Shown piece by piece: positions 4,751 to 24,122 of a stretch of DNA of 64,000 nt (positions within the stretch are counted from its first letter, which is position 1; each line of letters opens with the position of its first letter). Position numbers and translations under genes: made by a program. Source of the DNA: an uncultured Planctomycetaceae bacterium (lineage in GTDB: Bacteria > Planctomycetota > Planctomycetia > Planctomycetales > Planctomycetaceae); the NCBI GenBank assembly GCA_963815195.1, contig CAWFGE010000007.1, positions 224,001 to 288,000 on the forward strand. The letters are read 5' to 3'. Below the pieces are notes generated by a model. It had not been told where the DNA came from. It did not search any database and saw only the letters and a program-made list of their open reading frames with translations.

Positions 4751-6307
4751 TCACTTCGCCGATTCGGTCAAAGCGCGTTCGGCATCGGCAGGTTGAAAAT
4801 GATCCAACGGCCGGCCGTGGACGAATTGAGTTTCCTTGAGCAGCGTCCGCACGCCGGGGCGCGGCCGGCATTCCACCAGAAATTGGAACGCGAACAACGA
4901 CGGCCACATCTTCGCAAACAGCGTGCTGATCAAACCAAGGCAGCGTCCCCAGCGGCCGCGGACGACCGCCTCGAACGGCGGCCCCACGGGATGCATTCGC
5001 AGCACATCGTAGCCGCAGTCTTCCAACAGACGCAACAAGCTCTTTTTCGTGAACAGCCTTTTGTGCGTGATGTCGAGAATGCCCCGCTCCGCATAATTGA
5101 ACCGCCCGAAGCACAGGTTCAAGCGGATGCCCGCGAACGCCACGTTCGGCGTGGAGAGCACGAGCCGCCAGGTTCGATTGCGGCAGGACGCATCGAGATG
5201 CTCGTTCCGCAGCGCAATCAGAAAACCTTCGGGATCGCTGAGATGCTCGATGACGTCGAGCATCAAAGCCAGGTCAAACTCAAACGGATTGACGGGCAGC
5301 GGATCCATTTCGAGGTTCGCCGGGTGAAAGCCCGTCATCATGCCGGGCTGCGGCGGTTGGGCGTCGATGCCCGTGACCTGGCAGCCGAGGCGTTCGCATT
5401 TCTGGGCGACATGGCCGGGACCGCAGCCGATGTCGAGCACCCGCCCGGCTTTCTCCCGCTCGACGATGCCCGCGGCGATCGCGTGGGACGTGTAGTCTCC
5501 GAACGTCTTGTCGCGATACCGGCCGTTGTCCAGGTGGCGGAACTTCAGCGAGCAGGCCATGCCCATCTGGTGCATTTTGAACTGCAGCGTGGAGACGACG
5601 ACGTTCCAGGCATACCGCAGCCCGGGCACCCGGCAGACCTCGTCGCCGTAAAATGTGGGAATGGGAATCTCCGCGACCTGGGCTTTCACATAGGCGGCTT
5701 GCAGCAGGATCTCGGTATCGAAGTGGAAATCGTTGGAGTTCACCTCGAACGGAACTTTTTGTAGGAACGATGTGGAGAACGCCCGGTAGCCCGTGTGGTA
5801 TTCTTCAAGATCGAGGCCGGTGATCAGGTTCTGAAACCGGCTGAGAATGCGGTTCCCGGCGATCTTGTAAAGCGGCATTCCGCCCTGCCGGGCGCTTTTG
5901 ACCGAATGCATTCGCGATCCCAAAACCACGTCGGCTCCGGTTTCCTGCCAGGTCTCGATAAACCGCGGGAGCTCTTCGGGGGCGTATTGCCCGTCGCCGT
6001 GCAGCAGAACCACGAAGTCGAATCCGCCGTCGATCGCAATCCGATAGCCGAGCTTCTGGTTCCCGCCGTATCCCTGATTGTCGCTGTGCTGGACAACGGT
6101 GAGATTCGTCATGTTTTCATCGATAGCCCAATGGCGTAACGAGTCGGGGCCCTGATCGGTCGAGGCATCGTCCAGGCAAAGAAAATGCACATCGTCCCGA
6201 TTGAACAGCGACCGGGGCACCCGCGAGAAGACGTCGACCAAATGGCGCTCGGCTTCGTAGGCGACCACCAGAACCAGAATTTTGGAAGTAGGCACGGAAC
6301 AATCCAC
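4751..6307 (-). CDS. Bifunctional GT2 glycosyltransferase / class I SAM-dependent methyltransferase
   Basis: N-terminal GT2 (LDDASTD, NQGYGGNQK, LHGDGQY, HTGYRAF). C-terminal VLDIGCGPG and LDVIEHL methyltransferase motifs. Confidence 0.88.
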   Translation of the reverse strand: MDCSVPTSKILVLVVAYEAERHLVDVFSRVPRSLFNRDDVHFLCLDDASTDQGPDSLRHWAIDENMTNLTVVQHSDNQGYGGNQKLGYRIAIDGGFDFVVLLHGDGQYAPEELPRFIETWQETGADVVLGSRMHSVKSARQGGMPLYKIAGNRILSRFQNLITGLDLEEYHTGYRAFSTSFLQKVPFEVNSNDFHFDTEILLQAAYVKAQVAEIPIPTFYGDEVCRVPGLRYAWNVVVSTLQFKMHQMGMACSLKFRHLDNGRYRDKTFGDYTSHAIAAGIVEREKAGRVLDIGCGPGHVAQKCERLGCQVTGIDAQPPQPGMMTGFHPANLEMDPLPVNPFEFDLALMLDVIEHLSDPEGFLIALRNEHLDASCRNRTWRLVLSTPNVAFAGIRLNLCFGRFNYAERGILDITHKRLFTKKSLLRLLEDCGYDVLRMHPVGPPFEAVVRGRWGRCLGLISTLFAKMWPSLFAFQFLVECRPRPGVRTLLKETQFVHGRPLDHFQPADAERALTESAK

Positions 6308-6358
6308 CCCATCGAAAAATCGGCAATTTGAAACCCGCCTCCTGCGAACGGCGTCGCC

Positions 6359-8023
6359 TCAGTGCATCGCGAGGGAGTTTTTATTTTTTGGCGGCTTTCC
6401 GGAGCACCCGCGAGGCGGCGGGAACTCGATGATCTGATTCATCCCCACCTGCCAATGCTGAAAGGAAGTCACGAGCGGCAAATACGGCCCCACGCGCCTA
6501 AGCGAGAAACTGTCGTCATCGTAACCCAGATAGACGACCCAAAACCGCGGCGCATCCCGGGTCTCGGTGCAGTCCAGAAACTCGCACCAGTTCTCGCGGA
6601 GGCTGTATTCAAAAATGTAGAACTTCGGCAGCACCAACAGCCGATAGCCGCCGATGTGGTATTCCCGAAAACCGCCCGGCAATTCCTTGACGGGGTTCAG
6701 TTCATCGCGGCCCATGTAATAATCCAAGACGTTGCGGGTCGCGTCGTCGACAATCACCACATCCGACGCGGGAATCCGCTTTTTGAAAACTTCGACCGTC
6801 TCGTGCATTCGGGCGATCGACATGGGAGTCTCAAATCGCAGCACGGGCATTACGCTGTGGGACACAATCCAAAACCCCATCATCAGCGTTCCCAGAACCG
6901 CGGTGAGACGCCGCTTGGGCAGATAGCATTGAGCAAGGCTGACGCCAATCGCCAAGGCGACAAACGGAATCACCCAAATGGAATGCCGGGTGGGACCGAA
7001 GGGATAAACCCGGGCACACAACAGCGCATTGGCGATGACGAACGGCAACAGCACAAGGAGCACCCGGCTGAACCGTTCCGAGACCGGCCGATGTTCTTCC
7101 CGCGCCGAGCGAACCAGGATCCAAGAGGCGTACCCCAAAGCCAGGGGCACCAGGAACCAGTAGGTCCCGAAGGTGAAGCTCATAAACTGGATCGTGCGGA
7201 CGAGCATGAGTTTGATTTCTCGTCCGAGGGGGGTCGATGCGTTAATGCCGCGGCTCCAGTAACTCCACATCGCGTCGCGGGTATCGCTTTTGACAAAGCC
7301 CCGCACGTGGCTGAGATAAAGCCACGCGCAAATGCCCAGCACAAACGTTTGGCCCGCCGCCCAACCGAGCGCGATCCGCCGCGGGATCTGCCCGCCCAAC
7401 ACGCGAACGGTGACCACGATCCCCAAGACGAGCGTGAACCACGGGGCGCTGTAATGCGTCAAGTTCGCCAAGGCCAGGCAGAGCGTCAGCCCCAAAACGG
7501 CTCGCAGCGAGGGCTTTTTCACGAGCCGTTCTTGGAAGTAGAGCGCCCCGAAAAACAGGCACAGCAAAAAGGTATAGCTTCGCATCACATGCGACAGGCG
7601 GATCATGGGCGGCGAAAAGGTGAGGAACACTAAACCTAATACCGCTGGCGTCCGCCCCGCGGCTTCGCGAATCCAGAAATACGCGATCAAGAGCGCCAAC
7701 ACGCCAAACACGAGCGAAGGCCACCTCATAAAGGCTTCCGACGTGCCTCCCTTGTTCCAGTAGTGGTAGAACAAAAAGATCAAGGGTGGATGCGTGTGGA
7801 TCTTGCTCGCCTCGTACGCCGACATCAAATCCGGCTCTTTGGCGACCTGGAAATGCATCGACTCGTCGAAGTCCAGATGAAAGGCCTCGAGCATCTGATA
7901 CCGCAGCACCGCGCCGGCCGCGAGGATCGCCACGATCAAAACCCACAGCCATTTCGAGGCGGAGCCATTGGCATCCGATGTTTGCATGCTGTTGAACCTT
8001 GTGGTGGAATCGGTTTCGGTCAT
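6359..8023 (-). CDS. GT-C fold (family 39 / ArnT-PMT-like) membrane glycosyltransferase
   Basis: TM1 followed by LDFDESMH, then HPPL, MRWPS, RSYT and THYS. About 11 hydrophobic segments. ATG 8023 chosen. Confidence 0.8.
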   Translation of the reverse strand: MTETDSTTRFNSMQTSDANGSASKWLWVLIVAILAAGAVLRYQMLEAFHLDFDESMHFQVAKEPDLMSAYEASKIHTHPPLIFLFYHYWNKGGTSEAFMRWPSLVFGVLALLIAYFWIREAAGRTPAVLGLVFLTFSPPMIRLSHVMRSYTFLLCLFFGALYFQERLVKKPSLRAVLGLTLCLALANLTHYSAPWFTLVLGIVVTVRVLGGQIPRRIALGWAAGQTFVLGICAWLYLSHVRGFVKSDTRDAMWSYWSRGINASTPLGREIKLMLVRTIQFMSFTFGTYWFLVPLALGYASWILVRSAREEHRPVSERFSRVLLVLLPFVIANALLCARVYPFGPTRHSIWVIPFVALAIGVSLAQCYLPKRRLTAVLGTLMMGFWIVSHSVMPVLRFETPMSIARMHETVEVFKKRIPASDVVIVDDATRNVLDYYMGRDELNPVKELPGGFREYHIGGYRLLVLPKFYIFEYSLRENWCEFLDCTETRDAPRFWVVYLGYDDDSFSLRRVGPYLPLVTSFQHWQVGMNQIIEFPPPRGCSGKPPKNKNSLAMH

Positions 8024-8044
8024 CTGCTGCTCGGAAAATGGGTA

Positions 8045-8117
8045 ACCACGGAGACACGAAGGACACGGAGAAGTGATTTTTCTCGTTCTACCTCCGTGAC
8101 CTCCGTGTCTCCGTGGT
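8045..8117. repeat. Intergenic palindromic element (family C) built from short acacggag-type units
   Basis: accacggagacacgaaggacacggag ... ctccgtgacctccgtgtctccgtggt form an imperfect inverted repeat of about 26 bp. Confidence 0.8.
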
Positions 8118-8154
8118 AAAACTCGGTTTTCGATCGGGTTACCGACTGAGATGA

Positions 8155-9363
8155 TTAGTTTTTGTTGGTCGAGGCGTGAAACACTTCCGCCGGGAAATGC
8201 CCGCGCCACAGGGCCAGCGCACGGCCGGCGTGGGACAGGAACGTGTAAAACCGCTGCACCTGGCTGGGGCTGAGTTCATCGATCGTCTTCACCAGCCACT
8301 GCCCGGCCCGCACGCGGGTCTCCAACGGCGGCAGGACTTCCGGCGGTGCGAACGCCCACCATTCCAAAGCATGGCCGGTCGCCAGAATTCGATCGGCCAA
8401 CGAACCGAGCGGCGATGTATGATCGGCGGGCTGCGGGCCGTCGGCTTCGTCGCCGGGCCAATCGCCTTCCCAGTAGCCGTCTTGATGCTGGTTCGCCACG
8501 AGCCGGCGGGTGGCATCCTGCAGATGGGCCACGACCCGCAGCCGGGCCTGAGGTGACAGCAAACCGTGCGTTTCATCCACCCGCAACAAGAGCGCGAGCG
8601 CATGCAGCCGATGGTTCCCAAAGCAGACCCCTTGAGCCAGCCGCTGCCGCATCACCCGGTCGGCCAGGCGTTCCCAGGTCATCTCCTGGCCTTCGCTCGT
8701 GTACCAGCGTTTGACGTGCGGCATGTAATGCAAATAGGCGACGAGCGACCATTCATATTCCAGTTGATTCAAGCTGAATCTTCGCAGCGAATCTTCCAAA
8801 GCGCCCCGCAGCGGCATCTCACCCTGGGGCGTGATGACCGGATAATCCAATGGCGTTCCGACTTCCGCCAGTCCCGCCAGGCTGTGATCGACGTGGCTCG
8901 CCGCCGCGTAGCCTTCCCGCGTTCGCATCGCGATCCGCCCCCGCATGTCGGGTATCAGAAACGGCTTCGTCTTCGGCCCCCAAGCCTCGGCAAACCGGCG
9001 ATGATCGAGCAACAACTCCCGCATCTCGATCCCCGAAAGACATTCGGGATCCTCGAACACCGCTTCAACTCCCCAAAATCGGAGCGCGTGATCGACGTGG
9101 TTGATCTTGGGCCGGTTGCCTCTGAGTCGGGGCGTGAGCTTTTCCAAAACCCGCTGAAGCTGCGCGTCCGAAATGATCGCCGGCTCATCATAGAGCGGGC
9201 GAATGCGCACCGGCTTCGTCGCGGGTTCGGGAAGAGTCCGCGGCGCGGTGAAATCCTGATACCGCCACGCCGCGGCTGCGATCAGACTGCCCAGCAACAC
9301 GACCTGCAAAGCACAAAACCCGATCACGTTTCGCCAAGTTGTTTTTTCAAGTGCCATAGTCAT
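8155..9363 (-). CDS. Uncharacterised membrane-anchored protein, probably an alpha-helical toroid
   Basis: 402-aa ORF with one N-terminal TM segment. Motifs HVDH (twice), CFGNHRL, QHQDGYW and TGHALEW. Co-oriented with the flanking GT-C genes. Confidence 0.7.
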   Translation of the reverse strand: MTMALEKTTWRNVIGFCALQVVLLGSLIAAAAWRYQDFTAPRTLPEPATKPVRIRPLYDEPAIISDAQLQRVLEKLTPRLRGNRPKINHVDHALRFWGVEAVFEDPECLSGIEMRELLLDHRRFAEAWGPKTKPFLIPDMRGRIAMRTREGYAAASHVDHSLAGLAEVGTPLDYPVITPQGEMPLRGALEDSLRRFSLNQLEYEWSLVAYLHYMPHVKRWYTSEGQEMTWERLADRVMRQRLAQGVCFGNHRLHALALLLRVDETHGLLSPQARLRVVAHLQDATRRLVANQHQDGYWEGDWPGDEADGPQPADHTSPLGSLADRILATGHALEWWAFAPPEVLPPLETRVRAGQWLVKTIDELSPSQVQRFYTFLSHAGRALALWRGHFPAEVFHASTNKN

Positions 9364-9444: not shown

Positions 9445-11139
9445 TCATTCGCTTTTGTCCAAACTCCGTTTGCGGACCGCGACGAGGGCCAGGTCATCTT
9501 CGTAAACCGTCTTCCAGCCCAGGTGGCCGCGCAGCGCCCGGTGCAGATCCTGTTGCAGTTCTTTGTGGACAATGATCGTGTTGATGCGGTACTTCTCCAA
9601 CAGCGACTCCAGCCGGACATCGCCGCGGGAGATTTTGAGATAGTCCTGCCAGACCCGCGGCGGAACCACGTGCACCGCGTTGGTGGTCATCATCACCTGC
9701 AAGTCCTTTGGCCCGTCCCACACCAGCCAGTCTCCCCACCATTGCGGGTTGGCGACTAAACCTTCCGGCGGATGTTCGCGAAAGTATTTCGTCACGCCCA
9801 ACGGCGTTTGCGAGTGATAAAGCTGATCCGCCGACCGCTCCGGCCCGCCTAGGACAAACCGGCTCGTCGGCGAAAACACAAACGCCAGCCAGATCGCAAG
9901 CCCCCCGAACATCGCCCGCCGGGTCGAGCCGGCACAAGCCCAGCCGCGGTATTTCTCCGCCTGCCGGGAAAACGCCGCCGCGAGCCGGTCCCGCACGTCC
10001 TTCCCATGCGGAGCGAGCACCAGAATCCACACCGGGGCGTACCAGGCGACCATCCGGGTTCGCATGCAAACCGCCAGCGTGAACACCGCCAGGAGAAGCA
10101 CATCCGCCGCGGCGATGCGGGCCCGGCTATGGCGGAAAAGAACCAGCAGCAGAATCCACGAAGCCCCCACGGTGATGCCTTCGAGCGAAATCATCTCCAA
10201 AGAGTACCATTCCATGATGTCCTTCAAGTTGGGATTTGAAGGAAAGAGCGCGGTGTTGATGAGCAGATCCATTCCGTACGGATTGACGAGCGTTGCGAGC
10301 ACCGCGAGTTCCGTCGCCCACAGCCAGCGATGAAATTCGCGATCCCGCAATACCGACATCAAAGACTGCTCGCGCCACAGCACTTCAATCGCCCGCCCCA
10401 ACGCATAACAGCCCAAAACGGCAAAGCCCACGACAAACGAACCGTGCAAGTTGGCCCACGCCGCGAACACGACGGGCACGCCCAGCCAAAACACGAGCTG
10501 ATCCCAGCGGGTCCAGCGCGTGTTTTCGGGAGTGGGTTCGGACGTCATGCGACGCCGGCGGGAGTCGGACCGCACAACCAGCCATAAGACCAAAGCAAAG
10601 CACACGCCCCCGAACATTTCCGGGCGAATCACGGCATGCCGGCCCCAATTCACGCCCCAGGCCAAAAACGAACCGAGAACGCTCAAACCCACGCTGGAGG
10701 TTTGCAGATAGATCACGCGGGCCAGGATCAGATACGTCAACGTCATCGAAATGGCGAATACCGTGGAATAAGCTTCGACGCCGCCCCAGCGGCCGGCTTG
10801 AGCCAACACGACTTGCCCCAGCCATGCCGTGTCCACAACCCGCATACCTTCGGCCAGCGACACAAACGGCTCGTCCGTGGGCAAGACCTGATGATCCAAA
10901 ATCCAATTGCCGTAGGCGATGTGCCCCCAGATGTCCGAATAGAACAAGCGGAGGTAGTTGCAAAACAAGAAGAACAAGCAGAACGCGAGCACCGCCCCCA
11001 GATGCCGCCAGTCCCAAAGGAAAAGCCGCTGCCAACGATTGGGCTGTTCGTCCGAATGCTCCGCGTCGACCGGTTCGGTCGCGGCGGATTCTTCGAGGGT
11101 GCGAGCGTGGACAAGGGGTTCTTCAAGCGTCTGGGACAT
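9445..11139 (-). CDS. Polytopic membrane protein, putative GT-C glycosyltransferase
   Basis: SDIWGHIAYG after TM1, plus RPEMFG, WANLHGSF and NPYG. Many TM segments and a C-terminal soluble domain (WGDWLVW ... LEKYRINTIIV). Confidence 0.72.
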   Translation of the reverse strand: MSQTLEEPLVHARTLEESAATEPVDAEHSDEQPNRWQRLFLWDWRHLGAVLAFCLFFLFCNYLRLFYSDIWGHIAYGNWILDHQVLPTDEPFVSLAEGMRVVDTAWLGQVVLAQAGRWGGVEAYSTVFAISMTLTYLILARVIYLQTSSVGLSVLGSFLAWGVNWGRHAVIRPEMFGGVCFALVLWLVVRSDSRRRRMTSEPTPENTRWTRWDQLVFWLGVPVVFAAWANLHGSFVVGFAVLGCYALGRAIEVLWREQSLMSVLRDREFHRWLWATELAVLATLVNPYGMDLLINTALFPSNPNLKDIMEWYSLEMISLEGITVGASWILLLVLFRHSRARIAAADVLLLAVFTLAVCMRTRMVAWYAPVWILVLAPHGKDVRDRLAAAFSRQAEKYRGWACAGSTRRAMFGGLAIWLAFVFSPTSRFVLGGPERSADQLYHSQTPLGVTKYFREHPPEGLVANPQWWGDWLVWDGPKDLQVMMTTNAVHVVPPRVWQDYLKISRGDVRLESLLEKYRINTIIVHKELQQDLHRALRGHLGWKTVYEDDLALVAVRKRSLDKSE

Positions 11140-11223
11140 AATCAAACTTTCGTCGAATCGCCGTGCGCGATGATGTGGATTTCGCCGGGTTTAAATTCCA
11201 ATGTCAGTCGTTCCAAAAGGCCT

Positions 11224-11293: not shown

Positions 11294-11364
11294 TCGAAGA
11301 CCAAACCAGTTTCTTGAGCTTTTTTGGAAGTGCTGCATGCCGAATTTGCAAATTGGTTCAGTGC

Positions 11365-12399
11365 TTAGGTTTTGAGCATGGGGATTGGGGGCATCGGGGT
11401 TTGTTTCGGATTTCGAGATTCGAATTTCGGATTTTCCTCGCCGAGGTTTCGCGTGCGGTCCACGAGGAATTGCGGGCGGGCGCGGACCTGGTCATAGATT
11501 CGCACCACATATTCGCCGAGGATCGCCACGCCCATCGAATTGATCGCGCCGAAGAACGAGGCGGTGATGAGGCCGGACGTCCAACCGGGGATCGCCTCGT
11601 AGGTGATCCATTTCTTGTAAAGGGCAAAACTGATGACGCCTGCGCAGCACAGCCAGGACACGAGGCCGATGACGTAAAACAGCGTCAACGGCACGCGGGA
11701 AAAGGAGAAGATCGCGGTCTTGGCCAATCGGCACAGGCCCCAGAACGAAACCCGCGGCTGCTCATCGTGCCGGGGCAAGCGTTCGACCTCCACGCCCAAC
11801 TGCCGATAGCCCACCCAACCCCGGAGCCCCGGGAAGAAGCGGTCGGTGTCGGAGAGTTTGAGGATGTCATCCGCGACCCGGCGGTCGATCAGCCCGAAGT
11901 TCCCCGCGTCTTTGGGGATCGGCGTCTCCGCGATAAAGTTGAGCACCCGGTAAAACGCCGAGAACAACCCCCGCTTGACCGCGTTCTCCTTGCGTTTGGT
12001 CCTGACGGCATAGATCACGTCGTATCCCGTTTCCCACAAATCGAGAAACGTGGAAATCGCGCCCGGGTCATCCTGAAAATCGGAATCCATCACGACGATC
12101 GCATCGCCCGATGCATGCGACAGGCCCGCATGGAGCGCCGCCTGATGCCCGAAGTTCCGCGTGAGATGCACGACGGCGACTTCGGGATGCCGGTCGGCGA
12201 GCTCCTCCAGAATGGCTTCGGTCTGATCGGTGGAGCCGTCGTTGACGAAGATGACTTCGTACGAGCCGCCGATGTCTTCCATTTTTTGGCGGAGGGCCTC
12301 GGTCAACCGCTCGAGCACCTGGGCCTCGTTGAAGACCGGCAACACCAGCGACACCAGCGTTTCAAATTGTGAACGAGCATCTCGCGTGGGTGCCAACAT
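11365..12399 (-). CDS. GT2 polyprenol-phosphate glycosyltransferase (ArnC/GtrB/YkoT-like)
   Basis: SLVLPVFNE, VNDGSTD, RNFGHQAA, MDSDFQDDP and RFFPGLRGWVG. Two C-terminal TM helices followed by GEYVVRIYDQVRARP. Confidence 0.9.
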   Translation of the reverse strand: MLAPTRDARSQFETLVSLVLPVFNEAQVLERLTEALRQKMEDIGGSYEVIFVNDGSTDQTEAILEELADRHPEVAVVHLTRNFGHQAALHAGLSHASGDAIVVMDSDFQDDPGAISTFLDLWETGYDVIYAVRTKRKENAVKRGLFSAFYRVLNFIAETPIPKDAGNFGLIDRRVADDILKLSDTDRFFPGLRGWVGYRQLGVEVERLPRHDEQPRVSFWGLCRLAKTAIFSFSRVPLTLFYVIGLVSWLCCAGVISFALYKKWITYEAIPGWTSGLITASFFGAINSMGVAILGEYVVRIYDQVRARPQFLVDRTRNLGEENPKFESRNPKQTPMPPIPMLKT

Positions 12400-12504: not shown

Positions 12505-12521
12505 CAGCAATCGCTGTTCCA
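12505..12521 (-). promoter_or_regulatory. Putative sigma-54 (-24/-12) promoter for the leftward GT operon
   Basis: Minus strand reads TGGAACAGCGATTGCTG: GG-N10-GC, close to consensus TGGCAC-N5-TTGCW, about 105 bp upstream of the 12399 start. Confidence 0.7.
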
Positions 12522-12574
12522 TTGCATGCTATGCTTGTGCGGAAACGGCCATCAGGGCGTGCGGATTGTGCGGT

Positions 12575-12592
12575 TCGGCACGATCTTCGCAA
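12575..12592 (+). promoter_or_regulatory. Putative sigma-54 promoter for the 12640 gene
   Basis: TCGGCACGATCTTCGCAA: GG-N10-GC with a GGCACG core, about 50 bp upstream of a TTG start preceded by GGAGG. Confidence 0.65.
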
Positions 12593-12639: not shown

Positions 12640-14271
12640 TTGAATTCATTCCCACCGCCTGAAGGAGTGCGCAAACGGCACAGCGCGTTGATGGCGGCCG
12701 GGTTTTTGGCGGTCGTCACGTATTCCGTCCCGTTGTTCGTGCGGATGCCGCTGACGAACGACGCCCAAATGTACGATCTCCAGGTGCGGCTCCTCGCCAA
12801 CGGCGGCACGCTGTACCGCGACATTCTCGAACCGAATCTGCCGGGCGTGGTGTGGATTCAATCACTCGTCCGCACCGCCTTGGGCTGGTCGTCCGATGTG
12901 CTCCGGGGGTTTGATCTTTTGGTCTTCGCGGGCGTGCTCTTTCTCGTGGACCGCTGGTTTCGGGCTTTGAATTGGTCCACGGCCGGGCGGTTCGGATTGC
13001 TCACGGTCTGCTGGGTGTTTTACGTTTCGCAGTCGGAATGGTGCCATTGCCAGCGGGATAGCTGGCTGTCGTTGCCCGTCTTGTCCGCCCTCGCCTGCCG
13101 GCGGCATCTGGTGGAAACGATGGAAACGAAAAAATCATCGCGGATTTTCGCCTGTGCGTTCGGCGAGGGGATCTTTTGGGGGCTGGCGGTGTGGCTGAAG
13201 CCGCACATTCTGATTCCCGCCGCGCTGGTTTGGGGCGTGTTTCAATGGCTCAATCGGCCGGGAATGCGGGTTCTTTGGGATCTCGCGGGAATGCTGATTG
13301 GCGGATTGATCGTGGGCGGCTTTGGGAGCCTTTGGATGATTCAAGCCGGCTGTTGGGAACCCTTTTGGCAAACCATGCGGGAGTGGAACCCCCGCTATTT
13401 CGCCGCCGGCCGGGAACATTGGACGCTGCCCCGTCTCGCCGCGATGATCTGGCGGCTGTCGCCTTGGATCTTCGTGCACATTCCCGCGGCGGTGATCGCC
13501 GTGCGGTCGCTGCTAAAGGCCGGGCGATCCGCAAAACCCGATCGGCCCGCGGTTCTCCAAGCCATGCTGGCGGCGTGTTATCTCGGTTGGACCGTCCAGG
13601 CGTTTTTGCTTCAGCACCTGTTCGATTACATCCATGTTCCGCCGATGTTCCTGGCGATTTTGATCGTCGCGGTTCCGCTGCAAAAAACTCTCGGGTCGGC
13701 TTGGGGTCGGCCGCTCGCCGTTTCGCTGGCGGTGTTGATTATTTTGGCTTCGCCGATGTTTCGGCCCGGCCGGGCTGAACTCTGGCAAACCTGCCTGACG
13801 ACCAAAGCGAACCCGCAGCTTTATTCCGAGTTGGCGGTGCTGCCGAATCCCGATTGGCAGGATCTGGATCGGGTGGCGCGGTTTCTCGCGAAGCAAAAGC
13901 CCGCCTCCGGGGACGTGTGCTGTTTTCACAGCGATCTGGTCTCGTTGTACAACCGCTTGGGCCTGTTGCCGCCGACGCGGTTTGTATACGTCCAGGAAAC
14001 GCTGATATTTTTCCCCGACCGCCAGGAGCAAATCCTGGATCGCCTGCGGGCGTCATCGGCTCGGTTTGTGGCGACGGACATGCGGAGCGCCCGCCTGACA
14101 CCGGAGCAAATCGACCGCCTCGTGTCCCCGGCGTACCAACACGCGCTGCAACAGCCGGCCTCGAAGCCGAGGCCTTATCCTTGGGGCGATCCCATTGTGT
14201 TTCGTTCGGGGAACTATCTGGTGCATCGCGTGCGCCGCTTAGAGCCTATCCGAAAACCTCATTCTCCATAG
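12640..14271 (+). CDS. Polytopic membrane protein, putative GT-C glycosyltransferase
   Basis: TNDAQMYD after TM1, plus LYRDILEPNLPG, QRDSW and WLKP. About 11 TM segments and a C-terminal soluble domain. GGAGG RBS. Confidence 0.68.
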   Translation: MNSFPPPEGVRKRHSALMAAGFLAVVTYSVPLFVRMPLTNDAQMYDLQVRLLANGGTLYRDILEPNLPGVVWIQSLVRTALGWSSDVLRGFDLLVFAGVLFLVDRWFRALNWSTAGRFGLLTVCWVFYVSQSEWCHCQRDSWLSLPVLSALACRRHLVETMETKKSSRIFACAFGEGIFWGLAVWLKPHILIPAALVWGVFQWLNRPGMRVLWDLAGMLIGGLIVGGFGSLWMIQAGCWEPFWQTMREWNPRYFAAGREHWTLPRLAAMIWRLSPWIFVHIPAAVIAVRSLLKAGRSAKPDRPAVLQAMLAACYLGWTVQAFLLQHLFDYIHVPPMFLAILIVAVPLQKTLGSAWGRPLAVSLAVLIILASPMFRPGRAELWQTCLTTKANPQLYSELAVLPNPDWQDLDRVARFLAKQKPASGDVCCFHSDLVSLYNRLGLLPPTRFVYVQETLIFFPDRQEQILDRLRASSARFVATDMRSARLTPEQIDRLVSPAYQHALQQPASKPRPYPWGDPIVFRSGNYLVHRVRRLEPIRKPHSP

Positions 14272-16292: not shown

Positions 16293-16310
16293 GGGCAAAT
16301 GCCGAGCCAA
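16293..16310 (-). promoter_or_regulatory. Putative sigma-54 promoter upstream of the activator gene itself
   Basis: Minus strand reads TTGGCTCGGCATTTGCCC: GG-N10-GC with TTGC, about 95 bp upstream of the 16202 start. Confidence 0.62.
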
Positions 16311-16699
16311 TTTCGCGGATGCGGATGGAAACACGACTGATGCCCTGGGGGATCAGCCCGTTTCAGGGTGGTGACAATTCCTAGAATTTCATGATGTTCG
16401 TGGCCCCAGACCGTTTGCAAGAAAATCCTTAATAATTCGTAGGGAAATCCATGGGAGCGTCGCCGGCCGGCGTGATGTTGACCGTTTTCAACACGCAACC
16501 CCCCGACGTTTCGAGATCGAAGCGCTCGCGGGGTTTTCGGGAAGCGATTGCAAAGTCCGCAAATTGTTCCTTTTCGACAAAACCTTTTGTGTGCTCGATG
16601 GTTTGCAGTGGTTATCGATGACAACCGTTAGCGCCATCGCAAGTTGCCACCACCATCCCTGACGTGCCGACCGTTTTGAATCCTTCCGGGAGTTGTTTG

Positions 16700-17862
16700 A
16701 TGCCCGATTTGTCTGTGATCGTCCCCACCTTTTGTGAAGCCGAAAACCTGCCGGAGCTTGTGTCGCGGATCGACGCCGCGTCGCGGGAAGCCGGGATCGA
16801 TGCCGAGATTCTCGTGGTGGACGACAACAGCCCGGATGAAACGCGGGCCGTCTGTGCGGAGCTGGCCGCGCGGTTTCCGCTGCGGTTGATCGTTCGCACC
16901 ACCGAGCGCGGATTGGCCAGTGCCGTGGTCGCGGGGATGAACCAAGCGCGGGGCGAGGTGCTGTTGTGTCTCGACGCCGACTTGTCCCACCCGCCGGAAA
17001 AAATCCCCGAACTTTACCGCGCACTCGCCGATGGCGGCGGTCAGGCGGATTTTGTCATGGGCAGCCGGTATGTCGCGGGCGGCGGCACCGATGAGGATTG
17101 GGGCTGGTTCCGCTGGATCAATTCCCGCGTGGCCACCTGGTTGGCGCGGCCGTTAACCCGCGTCAGCGACCCGATGGCGGGGTTTTTCGCCTTGAAGCGA
17201 ACCGATTTTGAACGCGCGGAGGAACTGGACCCCATCGGCTTCAAAATCGCCTTGGAACTCATCGTCAAATGCCGGTGCCGGCACGTCGCCGAGGTGCCCA
17301 TCCAATTCCACGACCGCAAGCACGGAGAAAGCAAACTCAACCTCCGCGAGCAGGTCAACTATCTTCGGCACCTGAACCGCTTGTACGCCCACCGCTACAA
17401 AAATCTCACGTGGTTCGTGCTGTTCGGTCTTGTGGGGCTGACCGGGTTCGGGATCGACCTGGCGCTGTTTTATTTGCTGCTCCAGGTCCTGCCGGTGGAG
17501 TCGGCCGGGCGCTCGCGATTTGGGGCGCGATGAGTTGGAACTATGTGCTCAACCGCACGATCACGTTTCGCAACACGCCGCGGAAGCCCTGGTTCCGGCA
17601 GTATGTCGCCTTTTGCGGGAGTTGTTTGTTGGGCGGCGTGTTCAATTGGATGACGCGCGTGGGCCTGGTCACGGGCTCGGCGTACTTTGCCGGCCACCAG
17701 CTGCAAGCGGCCGCCGTGGGCGTAGCCGCGGGCATGATCTCGAACTTCCTGCTCTGCCGGTTTTTCGTGTTCTCGTCGCCGGAAGCCGTCTTCGGCCCGC
17801 CGGTCTCAAAACTGTCGGCCCGTCCCACGGAACGCCTCGCCCAAACCGGGAGCCAGCTATAG
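16700..17862 (+). CDS. Dpm1/Ppm1-like polyprenol monophosphomannose synthase-type GT2 fused to a GtrA flippase-like domain (one frameshift near 17503)
   Basis: SVIVPTFCEAENL, VDDNSPD, DADLSHPPE, DPMAGFF and GESKL, then FGLVGLTGFGIDL, continuing in the next frame as NYVLNRTITF ... SNFLLCRFFVF (GtrA). Confidence 0.85.
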
Positions 17863-20008
17863 TGGATCGGGATCCACGAAACTTCGCCCCATCAACGCCA
17901 GCAGAATCAGCAGGCCAATCAGCGACAGACCCGCCCCCAATATGAATCCCGGGGGGTTATAAACGAACTCGACCCGATGCGCACCGGCAGGCAGCGGGAC
18001 CGCGCGAAAGGCGACATTCGCGGGAAGGACTTGAGCGCGCGTTCCATCGACCTTCGCACTCCAACCCGCGGCGAAAATGTCGCTGAGCACCAAATAGCCG
18101 GGCTGTTCCAGATCCGCCTCGACCACGACCCGGTTCGGCGTGTATTCCAGAATGGCCGCGGGCCCAAACGGCTGCCGAGTTCCCGCCGGCAACACATCCT
18201 GATGCACCAACACCTCCCGCCGGGACGACAAGCCGGCGAGTTGCTCCGAAAAGCTGCGGCCGGCTTCCAGCACGCGTGTTTCACCCAGCACAAACGCCCG
18301 CGGGAGAAAGTTTTCGTGCTCGAAGATTTGATAATCCAGCCATTCCGGCGTTTGCCCCGCCAGCGTGACGTCCCGCGGCAATCGCCCGGCGGCGACTTTT
18401 TTCCAACCCGTTTTCGGCAGCGGAATGTTTGCGGGGACGACGGCGTATTTGACGCCCAGGAGCTCCACAAGCTCAGGCCGAAACCGCTGCGGATTCGCCG
18501 GCTGGAGGCCCACGATTTCTTCGCCCGGACTTCGGCCGGGAGCCAGGGCGTCAAACAAAATCGCCGCGCGGGTGAAGGGCACAGGATCATAACCGTGCAC
18601 CTTCGAAATCCGATGTTCCCAGGCTTCGCGGTCGGTGAGCAAATCCTGTTGCACCAGCACCCGTTCTCGATCGGCGTGCTTCGAGAGAAAATCGGTGACG
18701 GAACTGTTTTGACGAATCGCCTCCGCCGGCACCACCGCCAAAATCCGGTCCGCGTTGCGAAACGTTTCTCCGCTTATAATCGCGAGGATGCCGAGAAGCA
18801 TCAGCCCCCGAACCACCTGATTGCGGGAGCGAACCAGCGCTTCGACGCCACCCGCCGCCAGGACCGCCACCGCGAACGAACAGAAAAACAAGCCTCTCGC
18901 CGGCGCGAAACAGCGAAAACCCCGGCACCGTTTGAAACAGCCAGCCGTAGATCGGGGTGCTATTGCCGAAGGCGATCAAGCCCGCGAGAAGGCCCATCGC
19001 CGCGTAGCGCCAAACCGTGCCGGTTTTGGCGCGCAAAAGGAGACCCAGCATCGCCAGGCCCCCCGCCGTCCAGCCAAAATGGAAGAACGTTTCCCAAAAA
19101 AAACCGCCCGGCCCGGCATAATCCGCCGGTCCTCCCAAGGCGAAGGGATCCCACAATTGCCGAAAGTTCGCCGGCCCCAGGCTGATCGCTCCCGCCTGCT
19201 CCAAAGCCAATCCGCCCGAACGAACGGCCTGCTTGGAACACAAATATTGTGGCAACAACTCCACCGCGACCAGAGCCGCCGTCACCAACCCGACCCCCAC
19301 CCACCCCGACGCCAACTTCAGGCGATGGCCGGAAGGCGAATCTTTAGCAGGCGTGATGAGTTCGCCGAACAGCATCAGGCTCAGAAACAGAACGAGATAA
19401 TAAAACTCCTGAACATGCCCGCAGAAAAAGCCCATCGCGAGCACGCCCGCGAGCCAGGGCACCGCCCCGCGATCGCCGGTTCGGAATCGCTCAAACGCGA
19501 AGAACGCCCAGGGGATCCAGGCCGCCAGGCAGATTTGGTTGTAATGCCCCTCGCCGGTTTGGGCCATCAAATACGGAGCCGCCAGGTAAGCACAGCCCCC
19601 GACGATGCCCGCGATCCAGCCCCAACCCAGTCGGCGGACGAGAAAGTAGCCGCCCCAACCGCCCCACCACAGGTGGCCCGCGAGCATCCAACTCGCCAGG
19701 CAGGCGTTTCCGATCAGCAAGAACGTCCAGTTCGGGGGATAGAACAAGCCGCTCTGCGGATTGCCCAGCCAAGCCGTTCCTTCGAGCAAATACGGATTCC
19801 ACAGCGGAATCTGCCCGTCGTTTCGCCAAACCTGCCCGGGCAGCGACCGGAACGCCAAAAACTGAGCGGTGAGATCGTTCCGGCCGCCAAACTGCGGTCC
19901 GACCAACAAACCCGCCGGCCGCAAAACCAGCGGAAACACGGCCAGCAGCACAAATGCTGCCAACAGAAACCCCGCGAGAAGGTGCTGATGAATCTTGGAA
20001 CGGGACAC
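17857..20008 (-). CDS. YfhO-family (GT-C-like) membrane protein, one frameshift near 18895
   Basis: GQIPLWNPY..G..WLGNPQSGLFYPPNW in the N-terminal ORF. HGYDP, PRAF and GYLVLSDIFAAGWSAKVDG...ANVAFRAVPLPAGAHRVEFVY in the C-terminal ORF. Confidence 0.85.
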
Positions 20009-20100
20009 AACGAGACCCTCGGATGCTTTGTGGATAAAGAAGTATAGGTTATGGCTCAAAGTCCGCCTCGGCCGCGTTGATTTTTTGCAGCAACAAAAGG

Positions 20101-20163
20101 GGGAACGTTTCGCCAACGAAAACCCGCGTTAGCGCCGCTCCGTCAACACGAGGGAACGTTTCG
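20101..20163. promoter_or_regulatory. Direct repeat GGGAACGTTTCG (two copies), candidate upstream activator sequence
   Basis: Identical 12-mers at 20101-20112 and 20152-20163, 125-185 bp upstream of the -24/-12 element at 20287. Confidence 0.45.
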
Positions 20164-20284
20164 GCCAAAAGTCGGGCAAAGCTTCTCGCTTGTCCTGCAG
20201 AATATCCCGCCAGTCGTTTCCACCCGACGGACATTCGCGACTTTCCTCAAATCCGTTTCGATTTTTCCGCCCGCGCACGGAATC

Positions 20285-20302
20285 CCGGCACAAGGTATGC
20301 TT
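20285..20302 (+). promoter_or_regulatory. Putative sigma-54 promoter for the GT2-methyltransferase-GT-C operon
   Basis: CCGGCACAAGGTATGCTT: GG-N10-GC with GGCAC and TGCT, about 60 bp upstream of GTG 20362. Confidence 0.68.
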
Positions 20303-20361
20303 TTCCATCACCCTTCCCCGGGATGTTTTCTGCTTTCTCACATCCGACGAGTGTTCGCCTC

Positions 20362-21639
20362 GTGAATCACCCCGTGTTAACCATTGTCATCCCGGCCCTC
20401 AACGAGGAAGAATCGATCGGCATGACGATCGAACGCTGCCTCGCCGCCCGCGCGGGGATTGCCTCCACCGCGGGACTCGAGGACGTGGAAATCATTGTGG
20501 TCAGCGACGGGTCCACCGACCGCACGGCCGAGATCGCCCGCAGCTACGACGAGGTCCGGGTCATCGAGTTTCGCGAAAACCAAGGCTACGGGGCCGCCAT
20601 CAAAACCGGCTGGCAGGCCGGCCGCGGCGATCTGCTCGGATTTCTGGATGCCGACGGCACCTGCGATCCCTGGTATTTCGGGGAACTGTGCGCCGTGACG
20701 GCGATCGGCAAGGCCGACGTCGCGCTCGGTTCCCGCATGGGCCCCGATTCGCAAATGCCCCGCATTCGCCGCCTGGGGAACCGGATGTACGCCCTGATGC
20801 TGGGATTTCTGTGCGGCCGGCACATCACCGACACCGCCAGCGGGATGCGCGTCGTGCGGCGGGAGGTGCTCGAAGATCTCTACCCTCTGCCCGACGGCCT
20901 GCACTTCACGCCCGCGATGAGTTCCCGCGCGCTCCTCAACCATCTCCGCGTCGTGGAAATTCCCATGCGATACGAAGAACGCATCGGAACCAGCAAACTC
21001 AACGTGCTCCGCGACGGCCTGCGATTTGTCAAAGCGATTTTGGAAGGCGTGTTGTGCTATCGCCCGGAGAAAATCTTCCTGTTGGCGTTCGCCTTTTGCA
21101 TGACGCTGACGGTGCTGTTCGCGGCGAGTCCCACGGAGTTCTACATCCAAAACCGCTGGCTCGAGGAGTGGATGATCTACCGCTTTGCGGTGTGCAGTTT
21201 TTTGGGTTCGCTGGGGCTTCTGCTGCTGTTGGCGACGGCGTTGTGCAACCAGATGGCCCGCTTCAGCCGCCGCCGGCCCGATGGGAATTCCTTCTGGGCG
21301 ACCGGGATTCGCTCGCTTGTGTTCGGCTGGAGATTGACGGCCATCCTGGCGGTTTTCACCGGCTGCTCCGTGGGCTTTCTCTGGCCGGGATTGTTGCAAT
21401 GGGTCACGACGGGCCAGGTCACGCTGCATTGGTCCCGGCTGCTCGCGGGGGCGTTCTGCCTCCTGTCCGCATTCCAGACCGGCGTGTTTGCGGTGCTGCT
21501 GCAAATCGTCGAGCTTTGGCTCAGCGAACGATCTCCCTCGTCCCATCGCTGGGACACTTCCCCGGCACGCGCCCGGTCTTCCTCGCCGGCGTTACGATCC
21601 GAAGCCAACGCCCCGGCTGAAACCGTGGAGGCGATTTGA
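20362..21639 (+). CDS. GT2 glycosyltransferase with C-terminal transmembrane region
   Basis: TIVIPALNEE, VSDGSTD, NQGYGAA, LDADGT, DTASGMR and YEERIGTSKL. Four C-terminal hydrophobic segments. Confidence 0.88.
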   Translation: MNHPVLTIVIPALNEEESIGMTIERCLAARAGIASTAGLEDVEIIVVSDGSTDRTAEIARSYDEVRVIEFRENQGYGAAIKTGWQAGRGDLLGFLDADGTCDPWYFGELCAVTAIGKADVALGSRMGPDSQMPRIRRLGNRMYALMLGFLCGRHITDTASGMRVVRREVLEDLYPLPDGLHFTPAMSSRALLNHLRVVEIPMRYEERIGTSKLNVLRDGLRFVKAILEGVLCYRPEKIFLLAFAFCMTLTVLFAASPTEFYIQNRWLEEWMIYRFAVCSFLGSLGLLLLLATALCNQMARFSRRRPDGNSFWATGIRSLVFGWRLTAILAVFTGCSVGFLWPGLLQWVTTGQVTLHWSRLLAGAFCLLSAFQTGVFAVLLQIVELWLSERSPSSHRWDTSPARARSSSPALRSEANAPAETVEAI

Positions 21640-22262
21640 TGAGCACCGATTTGGGGATCGTCGGCCAAATTCATCATCGGAGCGTCCACCGCCGGCGGGT
21701 GCGGGTTTTGGCCCGCCATTTGGCACCCCTGATTCCGCCCGGTTCCAACGTCCTCGACGTCGGCTGCGGAGACGGTCGGCTCGCAAGTCGGCTGATGGAT
21801 TTGGTTCCCGATGTTTCGATCGCGGGGATCGACGTGCTGGTTCGCGAGGAATCGGCCATTCCCGCGAAAGCTTACGACGGCAAAACCATCCCCCACGCCG
21901 ACGGCAGCTTCGATGTCGTGTTGCTTGTCGATGTCCTGCATCATACGGACGACCCCGCGGCATTGCTCGCGGAAGCCAATCGCGTGGCCCGCCGGGCGAT
22001 TGTGATCAAGGACCATTGCCGAAACGGCTTCATGGCCGGCCCCACGTTGCGGTTCATGGACTGGGTGGGAAATGCCGCTCATGGAGTTCGGCTGCCCTAC
22101 AACTATTGGCGCCGGTCCGAGTGGCGGAAGACGATCGCGGAATTGGGGCTGACCATCGAGTGCTGGCAGTCGCAGTTGGAACTCTACCCGTTTCCCACGG
22201 GCCTGTGGTTTGATCGTTCGCTGCACTTCATCGCCCGTTTGACCGCCTCGTCAAACCAATAG
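21636..22262 (+). CDS. Class I SAM-dependent methyltransferase
   Basis: VLDVGCGDG and SFDVVLLVDVLHH. Overlaps the upstream stop codon (translational coupling). Confidence 0.88.
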   Translation: MMSTDLGIVGQIHHRSVHRRRVRVLARHLAPLIPPGSNVLDVGCGDGRLASRLMDLVPDVSIAGIDVLVREESAIPAKAYDGKTIPHADGSFDVVLLVDVLHHTDDPAALLAEANRVARRAIVIKDHCRNGFMAGPTLRFMDWVGNAAHGVRLPYNYWRRSEWRKTIAELGLTIECWQSQLELYPFPTGLWFDRSLHFIARLTASSNQ

Positions 22263-22321
22263 GATGCATTCGTAATCGGACGCCCGCATCACGCGTGCTG
22301 CCCATAAGCCGCCGAGGTTCT

Positions 22322-24122
22322 ATGCTGATCTTTCTGTTGATTGAACTGTCGTTGGCCGCATGGATCGTGCTGATCCTGCCGCGGCTGAGTTTCCTGAAAC
22401 ATCGGCGGCCCAGGCTGTTTCGGCCGCTGTGCCGGAGTTTGCAGGCTCGGCCGTGGTTGGCGACGTGTCTCGTGGCGATGTTTTCGCTTGTCATCAACGC
22501 CGGTCTGACGTTCGTTCAACCGCCCGCCCCAGAAGTGCATGACGAGTTCAGCTATTTGCTCGCGGCGGACACTTTCTCCCACGGCCGATTGACCAATCCC
22601 GCGCATCCGCTGTGGGAACACTTCGAGTCGTTTCACATTATCCACCAACCCACCTATGCCTCCAAATATCCGCCCGGTCAAGGCTTGATGCTCGCCCTCG
22701 GGCAACGCCTGACGGGAAAGCCGATCGCCGGGTCTTGGCTTGGCGTCTGCTTGATGACGGCCGCTGTGAGTTGGATGTTCCAAGGCTGGATGCCGTTCCG
22801 TTGGGCGCTCTTCGGCAGCATCCTCTTCGCCGCGAACGCCGGCATTTACATGTTTTGGGGACAGTTGTATTGGGGAGGGCAGACTGCCTCTTGCCGGAGC
22901 GGCCTTGGCCTTGGGCGCGATGCCGCGACTCGTGCGAACCCGGCAAATCCGCTATGCCCTGATCTTGGCTTCCGGAATTTCCATTCTGGCCGTGACCCGG
23001 CCCTACGAAGGGGCTCTGTTTGCGGGTTTCGTCGGCCTGGCGACCTGCTGGCGGCTCGTTCGTTCGCAGGCTTCGCTTCGCGAAACGTTCACCAAGTTCC
23101 TGCTCCCCAGTGCTGCGGTCCTCTTGGCGACCGTGTCGCTTTTGTTTTATTACAACGCCCAAGTGACCGGCGACTTCAAAACGTTTCCGTACATGCTGCA
23201 TCATCAACAATACGAACTCAGCCCGTTCTTCTTATGGGAAAGTCCGCCCCCGGCGGAAAAGACGTTCCGCCATGCCGTGCTCGACCGCTTCCATCAGCAC
23301 GACATCCTGCTCCTATTTCAAAAGCAGCAAGAGCTCTCCGGATTCTTGCACATCAAACTGGAACACCTGTTTTTTATCTGGTTTCAGTTTGGGAGCGTGC
23401 TGCCGGCCTTCGCGATCCTGTTTTGCTTTCAGCGCGGCGCGTTCCGAAAAACGGCCGCGTGGATGGCGGGATTTGCGTTTTTGTTCGCGGCGGTGCTGGT
23501 GACGCCTTGGCTGCACGCCCATTACTTCGCGGCCGCCGCTCCCTTTTTGCTTCTGGTTTTTGTCACGGGGCTGAGGCATCTTCGCGCGGCATGGAATCGG
23601 CAAGGCCGGTGGGTCCTCGCCGGATTGACTGTGTTCTATCTCGGGGTGAGCGCGTTTCGACTCACGCTCTATGCGGCCGCGGAACCGGGCCAGTGGTATC
23701 AGCATCGCGCCCGGTTGGTTGAAAGACTGAACGAAACGCCCGGCGAGGATCTGGTCGTCGTCCGCTACGCAAAGCAACACAACCCCTCGCACGAATGGGT
23801 CTACAATGGGGCGGACATCGACGGTTCCCCAATCGTGTGGGCCCGCGAGATGGACCCGGAGCGCAATCGCCGGTTGTTGGACTACTACGAAAACCGCCGC
23901 ATCTGGCTGCTCCAGGCCGATGCCGAGCCACCGTGTTTGATCGAACACAACCCGCCGAAAGAGAATGCACCCCAGGCGCCCGTTGCGCCTTCCGCCAAAC
24001 AAGGGACTGCGGTTGTTCAATCGCATTCGAGCCGCAACCGGCTTCGCGAGATAGAGAAATATCCCCGGCAGGATTCGAACCTGCAACCTTTGGCTCCGGA
24101 GGCCAACGATCTATCCAATTGA
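22322..24122 (+). CDS. Polytopic membrane protein, putative GT-C glycosyltransferase (frameshift near 22885; 3' end uncertain)
   Basis: [16 protein letters not shown] and SKYPPG, then [18 protein letters not shown] and [10 protein letters not shown] in the second frame. The last ~60 aa are low-complexity and run into the antisense tRNA. Confidence 0.72.

Follow-up and report, generated by a model that had tools for sequence, protein, structure and literature searches.

TfpW of Pseudomonas aeruginosa group IV is a GT-C enzyme that glycosylates the type IVa pilin, and its locus combines the order pilA-tfpW-tfpX with a GtrA-like protein and D-arabinofuranose (D-Araf) genes, according to the accessible part of that report (bioRxiv 10.1101/2020.04.19.049825). 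The three-component systems (GtrA/GtrB/Gtr*, ArnC/ArnT, Ppm1/Pmt and PgfS/PgfM) consist of a GT2 synthase, GtrA and a GT-C enzyme, as the available sections of their description state (PMC11127046). For Tad pili, the known Flp pilins are given as 40–60 aa long in the portion of PMC10710030 at hand, and RcpC is implicated in Flp glycosylation in the consulted excerpt of PMC12307814. Here we describe a gene block in a 64,000-nt window (the whole stretch of DNA that was analyzed, positions 224,001 to 288,000 of contig CAWFGE010000007.1) from an uncultured Planctomycetaceae bacterium, the genome assembly of which comprises 8.87 Mb in 25 contigs. The block is built around two core genes, which encode the membrane protein SDIW and a barrel protein. 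Our best reading of the sequences is that this core pair is a predicted pilin O-glycosylation locus for long-tailed (~100 aa) Flp-like pilins, to which variable GT2 and GT-C modules are added. The block likely serves to sugar-coat the Tad (Flp-type) pili of the organism and is parted from a pilin operon that lies on another contig. The core pair, the genes beside it and the predicted promoter sites are as follows (window coordinates):

8155..9363, minus strand: barrel protein (EXP), core gene, with an N-terminal membrane helix and a predicted periplasmic (alpha/alpha)6 barrel
9445..11139, minus strand: SDIW, core gene, a membrane protein with a GT-C fold and an oligosaccharyltransferase (OST)-like C-terminal domain in its AlphaFold model
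11365..12399, minus strand: GT2b, a GtrB/PgfS/ArnC-like synthase with two C-terminal membrane helices (PF00535)
12506..12521, minus strand: predicted sigma-54 -24/-12 site toward GT2b-SDIW-barrel, 10 of 12 consensus positions
12576..12591, plus strand: predicted sigma-54 -24/-12 site toward NDAQ, 10 of 12 consensus positions
12640..14271, plus strand: NDAQ, a polytopic protein, GT-C-like via its homologs, the own sequence being without a Pfam match
14790..16202, minus strand: sigma-54 enhancer-binding protein (EBP; PF00158, HTH_8, GAFTGA)
16294..16309, minus strand: predicted sigma-54 site upstream of the EBP gene itself, scoring 9–10 in all six loci checked

The AlphaFold model of SDIW, which was built from a 133-sequence alignment, has a predicted local distance difference test score (pLDDT) of 93. 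The top solved structure (VIA) is STT3B, with a Z score of 19.3 and a root-mean-square deviation (rmsd) of 4.3 over 444 aligned residues, followed by PglB, Pmt4, DPY19 (15.6) and ArnT (15.2); the Foldseek results are concordant. Residues 442–557 can be superimposed on the C-terminal domain of AglB (Z 8.9, rmsd 2.3 over 106 residues). The comparison with ArnT, PglB and PMT structures that had been proposed for this protein yields a GT-C fold, and all the listed matches are GT-Cs rather than Wzy or O-antigen ligases. No Wzy_C or O-antigen ligase family of Pfam matched any of the five membrane proteins of the block. SDIW shares only ~9–13% identity with STT3, PglB and AglB and has no sequence match in Pfam, NCBIfam or PDB, and PDB sequence searches with five family profiles returned weak or chance matches only. 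D69 is located after the first membrane helix and E310 in a later loop; by analogy with the general anatomy of GT-C enzymes, they are the putative catalytic residues. The model makes SDIW a candidate pilin O-glycosyltransferase.

The barrel protein (pLDDT 95.6) folds in its model as an N-terminal helix followed by an (alpha/alpha)6 toroid. Its fold matches to GH105, type II terpene cyclases and intrinsic factor/cobalamin carriers tie at Z 15–17 across unrelated families, so the fold gives no function. The conserved residues are H92, H157, D159, E202, E204, C247, H251, H331, E334 and H378. All 90 loci keep the nine His, Glu and Cys residues among them, and 89 keep D159; judging from the residue types, which alone predict the metal site, the protein is likely a metal-dependent periplasmic enzyme. 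It matches no Pfam or NCBIfam family; the best PDB sequence match is a QW-type motif against squalene-hopene cyclase (E 0.004), and in the ESM Atlas it falls among unnamed Planctomycetota clusters only, named clusters reaching at most 0.79. LanC and protein prenyltransferases do not appear among the top 50 fold matches, a list that does not exclude them. The family numbers 2176 representatives at E 0.001; of 251 genomes from the phylum, 18 contain close members, and these genomes belong to two families only. Among thirteen long homologs scanned, fusions to a C39 peptidase (six), to GT87 (two) and to YHS (one) were found. In the distant homologs P0169, P0170, P0172, P0206, P0211 and P0231, the C39 domain is N-terminal to the barrel. 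The C39 fusions hint that some members of the family may modify peptides. Three loci titled Candidatus Kuenenia stuttgartiensis (L324, L328 and L334) carry barrel genes ~60% identical to that of the window in loci of the Planctomycetaceae type, which suggests mislabelled bins.

SDIW and the barrel protein form the fixed part of the system. Among 90 loci with barrel homologs (10–40 kb each, retrieved starting from the exported protein), SDIW adjoins the barrel gene in 87. In a second set of 160 further loci from genomes and metagenomes, which partly overlaps the first, SDIW lies upstream of the barrel gene in 120 of the 123 loci with enough flank; of 101 loci, 61 have a pilin and 17 have a glycosylation gene within 3 kb downstream of the pair. 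In a quick tree of the barrel, the window belongs to clade A (40 rows, Shimodaira-Hasegawa-like approximate likelihood ratio test support 97); the other branches are a paralogous clade B (41 rows), a basal group of 7 rows and two rows that stand alone. Of the 40 clade-A loci, 25 have a tad gene within 10 kb, 27 have a flp-like gene within 5 kb and 28 have at least one of the two. The basal group has tad genes in 4/7 loci, a pilin in 4/7 and an EBP in 7/7, and the corresponding numbers for clade B are 0/41 for tad and 2/41 for flp-like genes. The typical order is SDIW, barrel, one to four pilins, in some cases a peptidase, cpaB, cpaF, tadB and tadC, followed by the EBP gene on the opposite strand. 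In a genome of the same genus, the barrel gene leads straight into flp-flp-cpaB-cpaF-tadB-tadC. The matching pilin/tad operon of the window's own genome, 82–96% identical, is located on contig C18 (157206–163235). The Tad components (CpaB/RcpC, CpaF, TadB/TadC, A24 peptidase and secretin) were identified with Pfam and NCBIfam in related loci and with tblastn in the own genome.

The 12-row subclade that includes the window has EBP, NDAQ and GT2 genes in 11 of 12 loci. The metagenome locus L350 reads EBP, NDAQ, GT2, SDIW, barrel, GT2-methyltransferase, FDES, GT87, flp, flp, flp, cpaB and is nearly the left half of the window still joined to a pilus operon; the GT2-methyltransferase gene is also placed between barrel and flp in the genome locus L324. 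A third SDIW paralog of the own genome (C13:1005520-1009689) lies directly upstream of a short canonical Flp gene, with no barrel beside it and with two unnamed membrane proteins and an A24 prepilin peptidase as neighbors. The same SDIW-flp pair is found within a glycosylation cluster of G036 (L038:179-2093). The own genome also encodes a pair of the clade-B type (C12:658325-661952), in which the SDIW and barrel residues are intact and next to which no tad genes lie. Clade B is widespread in Planctomycetaceae, members of which also hold several (up to ~20) scattered long Flp-like genes per genome.

The linked pilins contain a prepilin-type leader and a hydrophobic helix, followed by a tail with Ser/Thr and Cys residues. 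Their mature length is 84–143 aa with a median of 100 (76 sequences) and most lack Tyr6, which places them outside the canonical Flp definition (40–60 aa, Glu5-Tyr6); none of the six tested gave a Pfam Flp match. We call them Flp-like because of the prepilin motif and the gene position. Among 201 genomes of the class, long Flp-like genes are found in 65 of the 66 with a strong barrel match versus 25 of the 135 others, as counted by hand from tables. In the major pilin, a Ser/Thr-rich stretch comes after a conserved His; the protein also has a conserved pair of Cys residues and ends in an acidic C-terminus. At the third position after this His (His+3), 47 of the 52 loci in which SDIW retains D69 and E310 have Ser or Thr, versus 4 of the 24 in which both are lost. 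This makes the His+3 Ser/Thr a lead for the acceptor site, not proof of it.

To score sigma-54 sites, positions were counted out of 12 against the -24/-12 consensus pattern. The sites at 12506..12521 and 12576..12591 both score 10–11 in each of the genus's four genomes, and the first does so in G015 as well. A single 10/12 match is weak on its own (0.06 per kb genome-wide); only sites with demonstrated conservation are claimed, which leaves aside the matches at 9428 and 20286. In 32 gaps of the GT2b-NDAQ type, which include repeated views of one locus, the score is at least 9 toward SDIW in 21 and toward NDAQ in 15; random 350-base windows reach at least 9 in 8% and at least 10 in 1.7%. Before the first flp gene, a score of at least 10 is found in 12 of 17 loci with an EBP versus 3 of 15 without. 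The best-conserved block upstream of flp1 in the genus is weaker, with a score of 8 in the own genome and 9 in G003; in G001 and G002 it is too short by two bases. Of the 69 EBPs located near barrel genes, a number that includes duplicates and the EBP of the window, 67 have the latter as their best match among the 13 EBP-like open reading frames (ORFs) of the own genome. By sequence, the EBP is a dedicated ortholog that accompanies both the SDIW-barrel pair and the tad operon. Since -24/-12 sites are conserved before both gene sets and the EBP orthologs are linked to them, the EBP likely serves the pilin and the glycosylation genes. For the long Flp-like genes of ten genomes (L201-L260), the upstream sigma-54-type score is at least 9 in 44 of 60 and at least 10 in 21 of 60, which suggests that these genes form a large predicted sigma-54 pilin regulon.

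In the proposed mechanism, the EBP and sigma-54 would turn on the pilin operon and the glycosylation genes together. The GT2 enzymes would load sugars, some perhaps methylated, onto polyprenyl phosphate, and GtrA would help to flip the lipid-linked sugars. SDIW would then move the first sugar to a Ser/Thr in the stretch just after the hydrophobic helix of the pilin; the candidate acceptor, the third residue after the conserved His, corresponds to Ser58 of the 98-aa mature major pilin. NDAQ, FDES, YfhO and HDEF would extend or branch the glycan, or serve other surface acceptors, and the barrel protein would work with SDIW on the extra C-terminal tail of the pilin or on the glycan. In outline (GT2-made polyprenyl-phosphate sugars, SDIW acting on the pilin tail, extension by NDAQ and the variable GT-Cs, and the barrel acting alongside), we consider this scheme somewhat probable. 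A further reading is offered as a speculative proposal of low probability: in Planctomycetia, an OST-like GT-C and the membrane-anchored, His/Cys-rich barrel would form a two-subunit machine for a new class of Flp pilins with long tails, all controlled by a single sigma-54 activator, and the barrel, which stays unchanged even beside a dead GT-C, would carry out a periplasmic protein modification for which no precedent has been described.

A preliminary description of this DNA, made from the letters alone, had proposed a sigma-54-controlled assembly line of lipid-carrier-dependent glycosylation with five GT-C-like enzymes. The underlying logic of GT2, GtrA and GT-C is supported by Pfam and NCBIfam and by the SDIW fold. 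Sigma-54 control is supported for at least the GT2b-SDIW-barrel and NDAQ units, which have the conserved divergent -24/-12 sites. A single conserved assembly line finds no support: the block is not conserved as a whole, only SDIW and the barrel being fixed, and co-occurrence in relatives holds for this pair and not for the FDES, GT2-methyltransferase, YfhO, GT2d, methyltransferase and HDEF genes, which vary. The acceptor, left there as a protein, a lipid or a holdfast/stalk polymer, now has candidates in the long Flp-like Tad pilins, and the 'unknown exported protein', present and of the exported type as described, turns out to be the most conserved part of the system.

Several observations, taken together in this paragraph and the next, weigh against pilin glycosylation. 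No flp or tad gene is present in the window. The GT2/NDAQ-expanded subclade has flp within 5 kb in only 3 of 12 loci, with two more at ~15 kb, so the expanded form is the least tad-linked one (tad within 10 kb in 2/12); GT2 genes lie within 10 kb in only 3 of the 28 clade-A loci outside it. Clade B retains an intact SDIW-barrel pair without tad linkage. The locus counts overstate independence, since many loci are close kin (Gimesia, Bremerella and Blastopirellula), and the Caulobacter tad pilus shows no glycan density in the part of PMC10710030 that was available. The block might instead decorate a non-pilin surface acceptor, such as lipopolysaccharide or another lipid, exported proteins or a holdfast-type adhesin, and merely be co-regulated with Tad within a single adhesion program controlled by sigma-54. 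The location of the GT2-rich form mostly off tad and the clade-B pairs, which are never at tad loci, speak for such an acceptor, as do the accessory GT-Cs of the YfhO, PMT_2 and GT87 kinds, the known acceptors of which are varied. GtrABC-type three-component systems, moreover, typically modify polysaccharides in the available text of PMC11127046. However, clade A, the basal clade and the C13 paralog each abut pilin genes, often as immediate neighbors, long pilins co-occur with the barrel across genomes, and the closest folds of SDIW are protein glycosyltransferases. We regard a non-pilin acceptor as unlikely for the block, and it may still apply to the accessory genes.

Further points concern SDIW itself. 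WWDYG, the sequon-binding motif of STT3, PglB and AglB (GT66), was found neither in SDIW of the window nor in its aligned family, where the corresponding place reads PQWWGDW, and SDIW is not assigned to GT66 because of its absence. D69 is missing from 14 of the 38 scorable clade-A loci, all of which retain the SDIW-barrel pair, and the barrel residues are kept in these 14 as well. One Pirellulaceae-rich clade holds the pair with the putative catalytic residues of SDIW lost, and in total the acidic residues have been lost in at least two lineages that still hold the operon. The tree shows two losses in SDIW and nine changes of the His+3 Ser/Thr, which leaves two independent pairs, and the sign test for co-variation is not significant and cannot reach significance with two pairs. 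This test left out L377 (SDIW columns all gaps), L346 (doubtful motif) and the truncated, duplicate and two 'half' rows. A separate co-variation test failed in G030, where a dead SDIW is nested among intact ones, as no tad-linked pilin was found in that genome. An invariant barrel beside a decaying SDIW raises the possibility that the pair is a maturation or assembly factor of the Tad pilus, in which the barrel would be the essential catalyst that cross-links, trims, lipidates or in some other way alters the pilin tail and the GT-C mainly a lipid-binding scaffold with optional sugar transfer. The six C39 peptidase fusions, the terpene cyclase-like QW motif, the Cys pair and acidic C-terminus of the major pilins, and the non-catalytic GT-C-fold subunit of glycosylphosphatidylinositol transamidase, which is also among the SDIW matches (Z 11), are in line with such a factor. 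On the other side, 24 of 38 scorable loci in clade A, 39 of 39 in clade B and 6 of 7 in the basal group still have D69, two proteins combine the barrel with GT87, and GT2/GT-C genes have been inserted repeatedly beside the pair, directly downstream in 17 of 101 loci. We find a maturation factor of this kind doubtful.

The remaining genes of the block, most of them accessory, are:

4751..6307, minus strand: GT2 of the polyprenyl-phosphate-sugar synthase type fused to an S-adenosylmethionine (SAM) methyltransferase (GT2-MT), accessory (PF00535, PF13489)
6359..8209, minus strand: FDES, a GT-C of the PMT_2/ArnT kind, accessory (PF13231, 36.7 bits versus a cut-off of 26.1)
16664..17862, plus strand: GT2c-GtrA fusion, DPM-synthase/Ppm1-like, with one frameshift near 17506 (PF00535, PF04138)
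17857..20116, minus strand: NDLT, a YfhO/PgfM-like GT-C, accessory, with one frameshift near 18884-18903 (PF09586 in the C-terminal piece)
20077..21639, plus strand: GT2d, AglJ-like, with C-terminal membrane helices, accessory (PF00535; homology begins near 20374)
21636..22262, plus strand: free class I SAM methyltransferase, accessory (PF13489/PF08241)
22295..24023, plus strand: HDEF, a polytopic protein, GT-C-like via its homologs, accessory, with one frameshift near 22883

The inventory of the preliminary description was recovered in full: the four GT2s, one fused to GtrA and one to a methyltransferase (PF00535, PF04138, PF13489), the free methyltransferase, the exported protein (402 aa, one N-terminal membrane helix), the EBP with GAFTGA, and the five polytopic proteins, the acidic motifs of which start at 7870 (FDES), 10938 (SDIW), 12757 (NDAQ), 19879 (NDLT) and 22538 (HDEF). 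Its statement that polymerase, exporter and nucleotide-sugar genes are absent also agrees with our scan, as no Wzx, Wzy, Wza, ABC-exporter or nucleotide-sugar-synthesis family of Pfam matched among 51 ORFs selected from the window. Of its five GT-C-like enzymes, SDIW is confirmed by fold and FDES and NDLT by Pfam matches of their own, and NDAQ and HDEF can be called GT-C-like through homologs only. Neither has a Pfam or NCBIfam match or a match in profile and PDB sequence searches; 7 of 120 NDAQ homologs among the matches listed carry PF13231 and 1 of 13 scanned matched PMT_2 under the cut-off (E 1.8e-4), and among 12 HDEF homologs one lies over the PMT_2 cut-off and two more under it. Profile-profile comparison of SDIW with NDAQ and of NDAQ with HDEF detected no kinship (probability <1%).

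PF00535 scores above its curated cut-off in all four GT2 domains. The NCBIfam matches are under cut-off, namely AglJ/PpgS as the top models for GT2-MT, PgfS (196 bits) and ArnC (134 bits) for GT2b and AglJ (92 bits) for GT2d; FDES matches Agl23 weakly and NDLT matches PgfM1/M2 weakly. The true start of FDES is probably near 8020. The end of the block had been put at 24122, which overlaps a tRNA-Arg gene; homology of HDEF stops near 24023. This tRNA-Arg(CCG) gene (24059-24134) forms the right edge of the accessory genes and is a possible integration site.

Three genes (GT2-GtrA, NDLT/YfhO and HDEF) are each split by one frameshift. The GT2c domain (16664-17533) and GtrA (PF04138, 47.8 bits, 17269-17862) lie in different frames, and the intact GT2-GtrA fusion of G036 aligns over both. 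An intact 799-aa NDLT homolog of G021 likewise spans both frames, and an intact 600-aa ortholog of HDEF is present in G001, of the same genus, on another contig. The shift at 17506 is absent from one short-read contig of other runs (depth 2), as is that at 22883 from one such contig (depth 6), and frameshifts at different places are seen in two assemblies of the same genus; the shifts at 17506 and 22883 are therefore probably assembly errors. For the NDLT shift near 18890, no indel was listed in the comparison with the contigs of other runs. The flanking amidohydrolase gene (2967-4676) is spread over three frames and the GntR gene (24399-25238) looks broken, in line with assembly indels.

Three frameshifted genes, and right-hand genes that are not syntenic in relatives, could also point to an ordinary variable glycosyltransferase island, partly decayed and with no common pathway. 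Yet two of the three shifts are absent from the contigs of other runs, other genes and same-genus assemblies are shifted elsewhere, and the core order and the promoter sites are conserved. An island without a common pathway is very improbable, and for the core pair largely refuted. The accessory FDES, GT2-MT, YfhO, GT2d, methyltransferase and HDEF genes do differ between relatives. Because pilin glycans reportedly block phages in Pseudomonas, the variable GT2/GT-C genes may, by analogy, be a 'serotype' cassette of the pilus.

Other features were observed in the window. A near-perfect tandem duplication of ~127 bases (14527-14790) follows the stop codon of the EBP gene, and its unit has ~100 BLAST matches in the genome. 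A palindromic repeat resembling repetitive extragenic palindromic elements (11215-11300, ~218 BLAST matches in the genome) lies between SDIW and GT2b. An HTTM/vitamin K-dependent gamma-carboxylase-like gene (56994-61815) adjoins FG-GAP/ASPIC and TPR genes, and DUF1559 pilin-like genes are found at 46293 and 55273.

The composition of planctomycete pili and fibers is poorly known. The locus offers SDIW, with its D69, as a testable enzyme; it also points to a candidate residue for the acceptor, to a regulator whose promoters are predicted and to a strictly conserved partner. The cultured genera Gimesia, Blastopirellula and Bremerella together span intact and naturally dead forms of the GT-C, which provides a ready comparison. 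Glycosylation of Flp pilins has been reported before, with no link to a transferase in the searchable literature, outside which most subscription papers lie. Searches of the same scope on the glycosylation of planctomycete pilins, on glycosyltransferases for Flp and on the control of tad by sigma-54 returned no account of the SDIW-barrel system, and nothing like it is described in the accessible parts of a Tad pili review (PMC13721041) and of a Pseudomonas RpoN study (PMC9207406). We met no earlier account of the barrel partner, of the link to sigma-54 or of the candidate acceptor serine.

The locus can be compared with five kinds of known system. With TfpW, as far as its available description goes, it shares a GT-C, a predicted lipid-linked sugar, a GtrA-like component and predicted periplasmic glycosylation of a pilin. 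It differs in the Tad/type IVc pilus with long Flp-like pilins, in the predicted GT2-made donors and in the obligatory barrel partner; no DprE-type gene was matched in the window with Pfam. The gene next to the pilin, as in TfpW loci, is seen in 27 of 40 clade-A loci, the window's own locus not being one of them. All three parts of the three-component systems (GT2, GtrA and GT-C) are present, but the window has four synthases and five GT-C-like proteins with NCBIfam scores under cut-off throughout, and the fixed core is a GT-C with a barrel rather than GT2, GtrA and GT-C. STT3, PglB and AglB are the best structural match of SDIW over its full length, including the C-terminal globular domain, whereas the missing WWDYG, the low identity and the lack of a Pfam or PDB sequence match set SDIW apart. 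The barrel resembles (alpha/alpha)6 toroid enzymes (GH105/GH88, type II terpene cyclases, AGE-type epimerases and thioester domains) in fold (Z 12–17) and in one QW-type motif, and differs from them in its 6–16% identity, His-rich predicted active site and membrane anchor. As in Tad/Flp systems, CpaB/RcpC, CpaF, TadB/C, A24 peptidase and secretin genes flank the pair in relatives, while the linked pilins have 84–143 aa versus the 40–60 aa listed for known Flp pilins in the available portion of PMC10710030. Judged from its genes, the locus falls outside the definitions of both GT66 and canonical Flp and is predicted to work like TfpW and the three-component systems.

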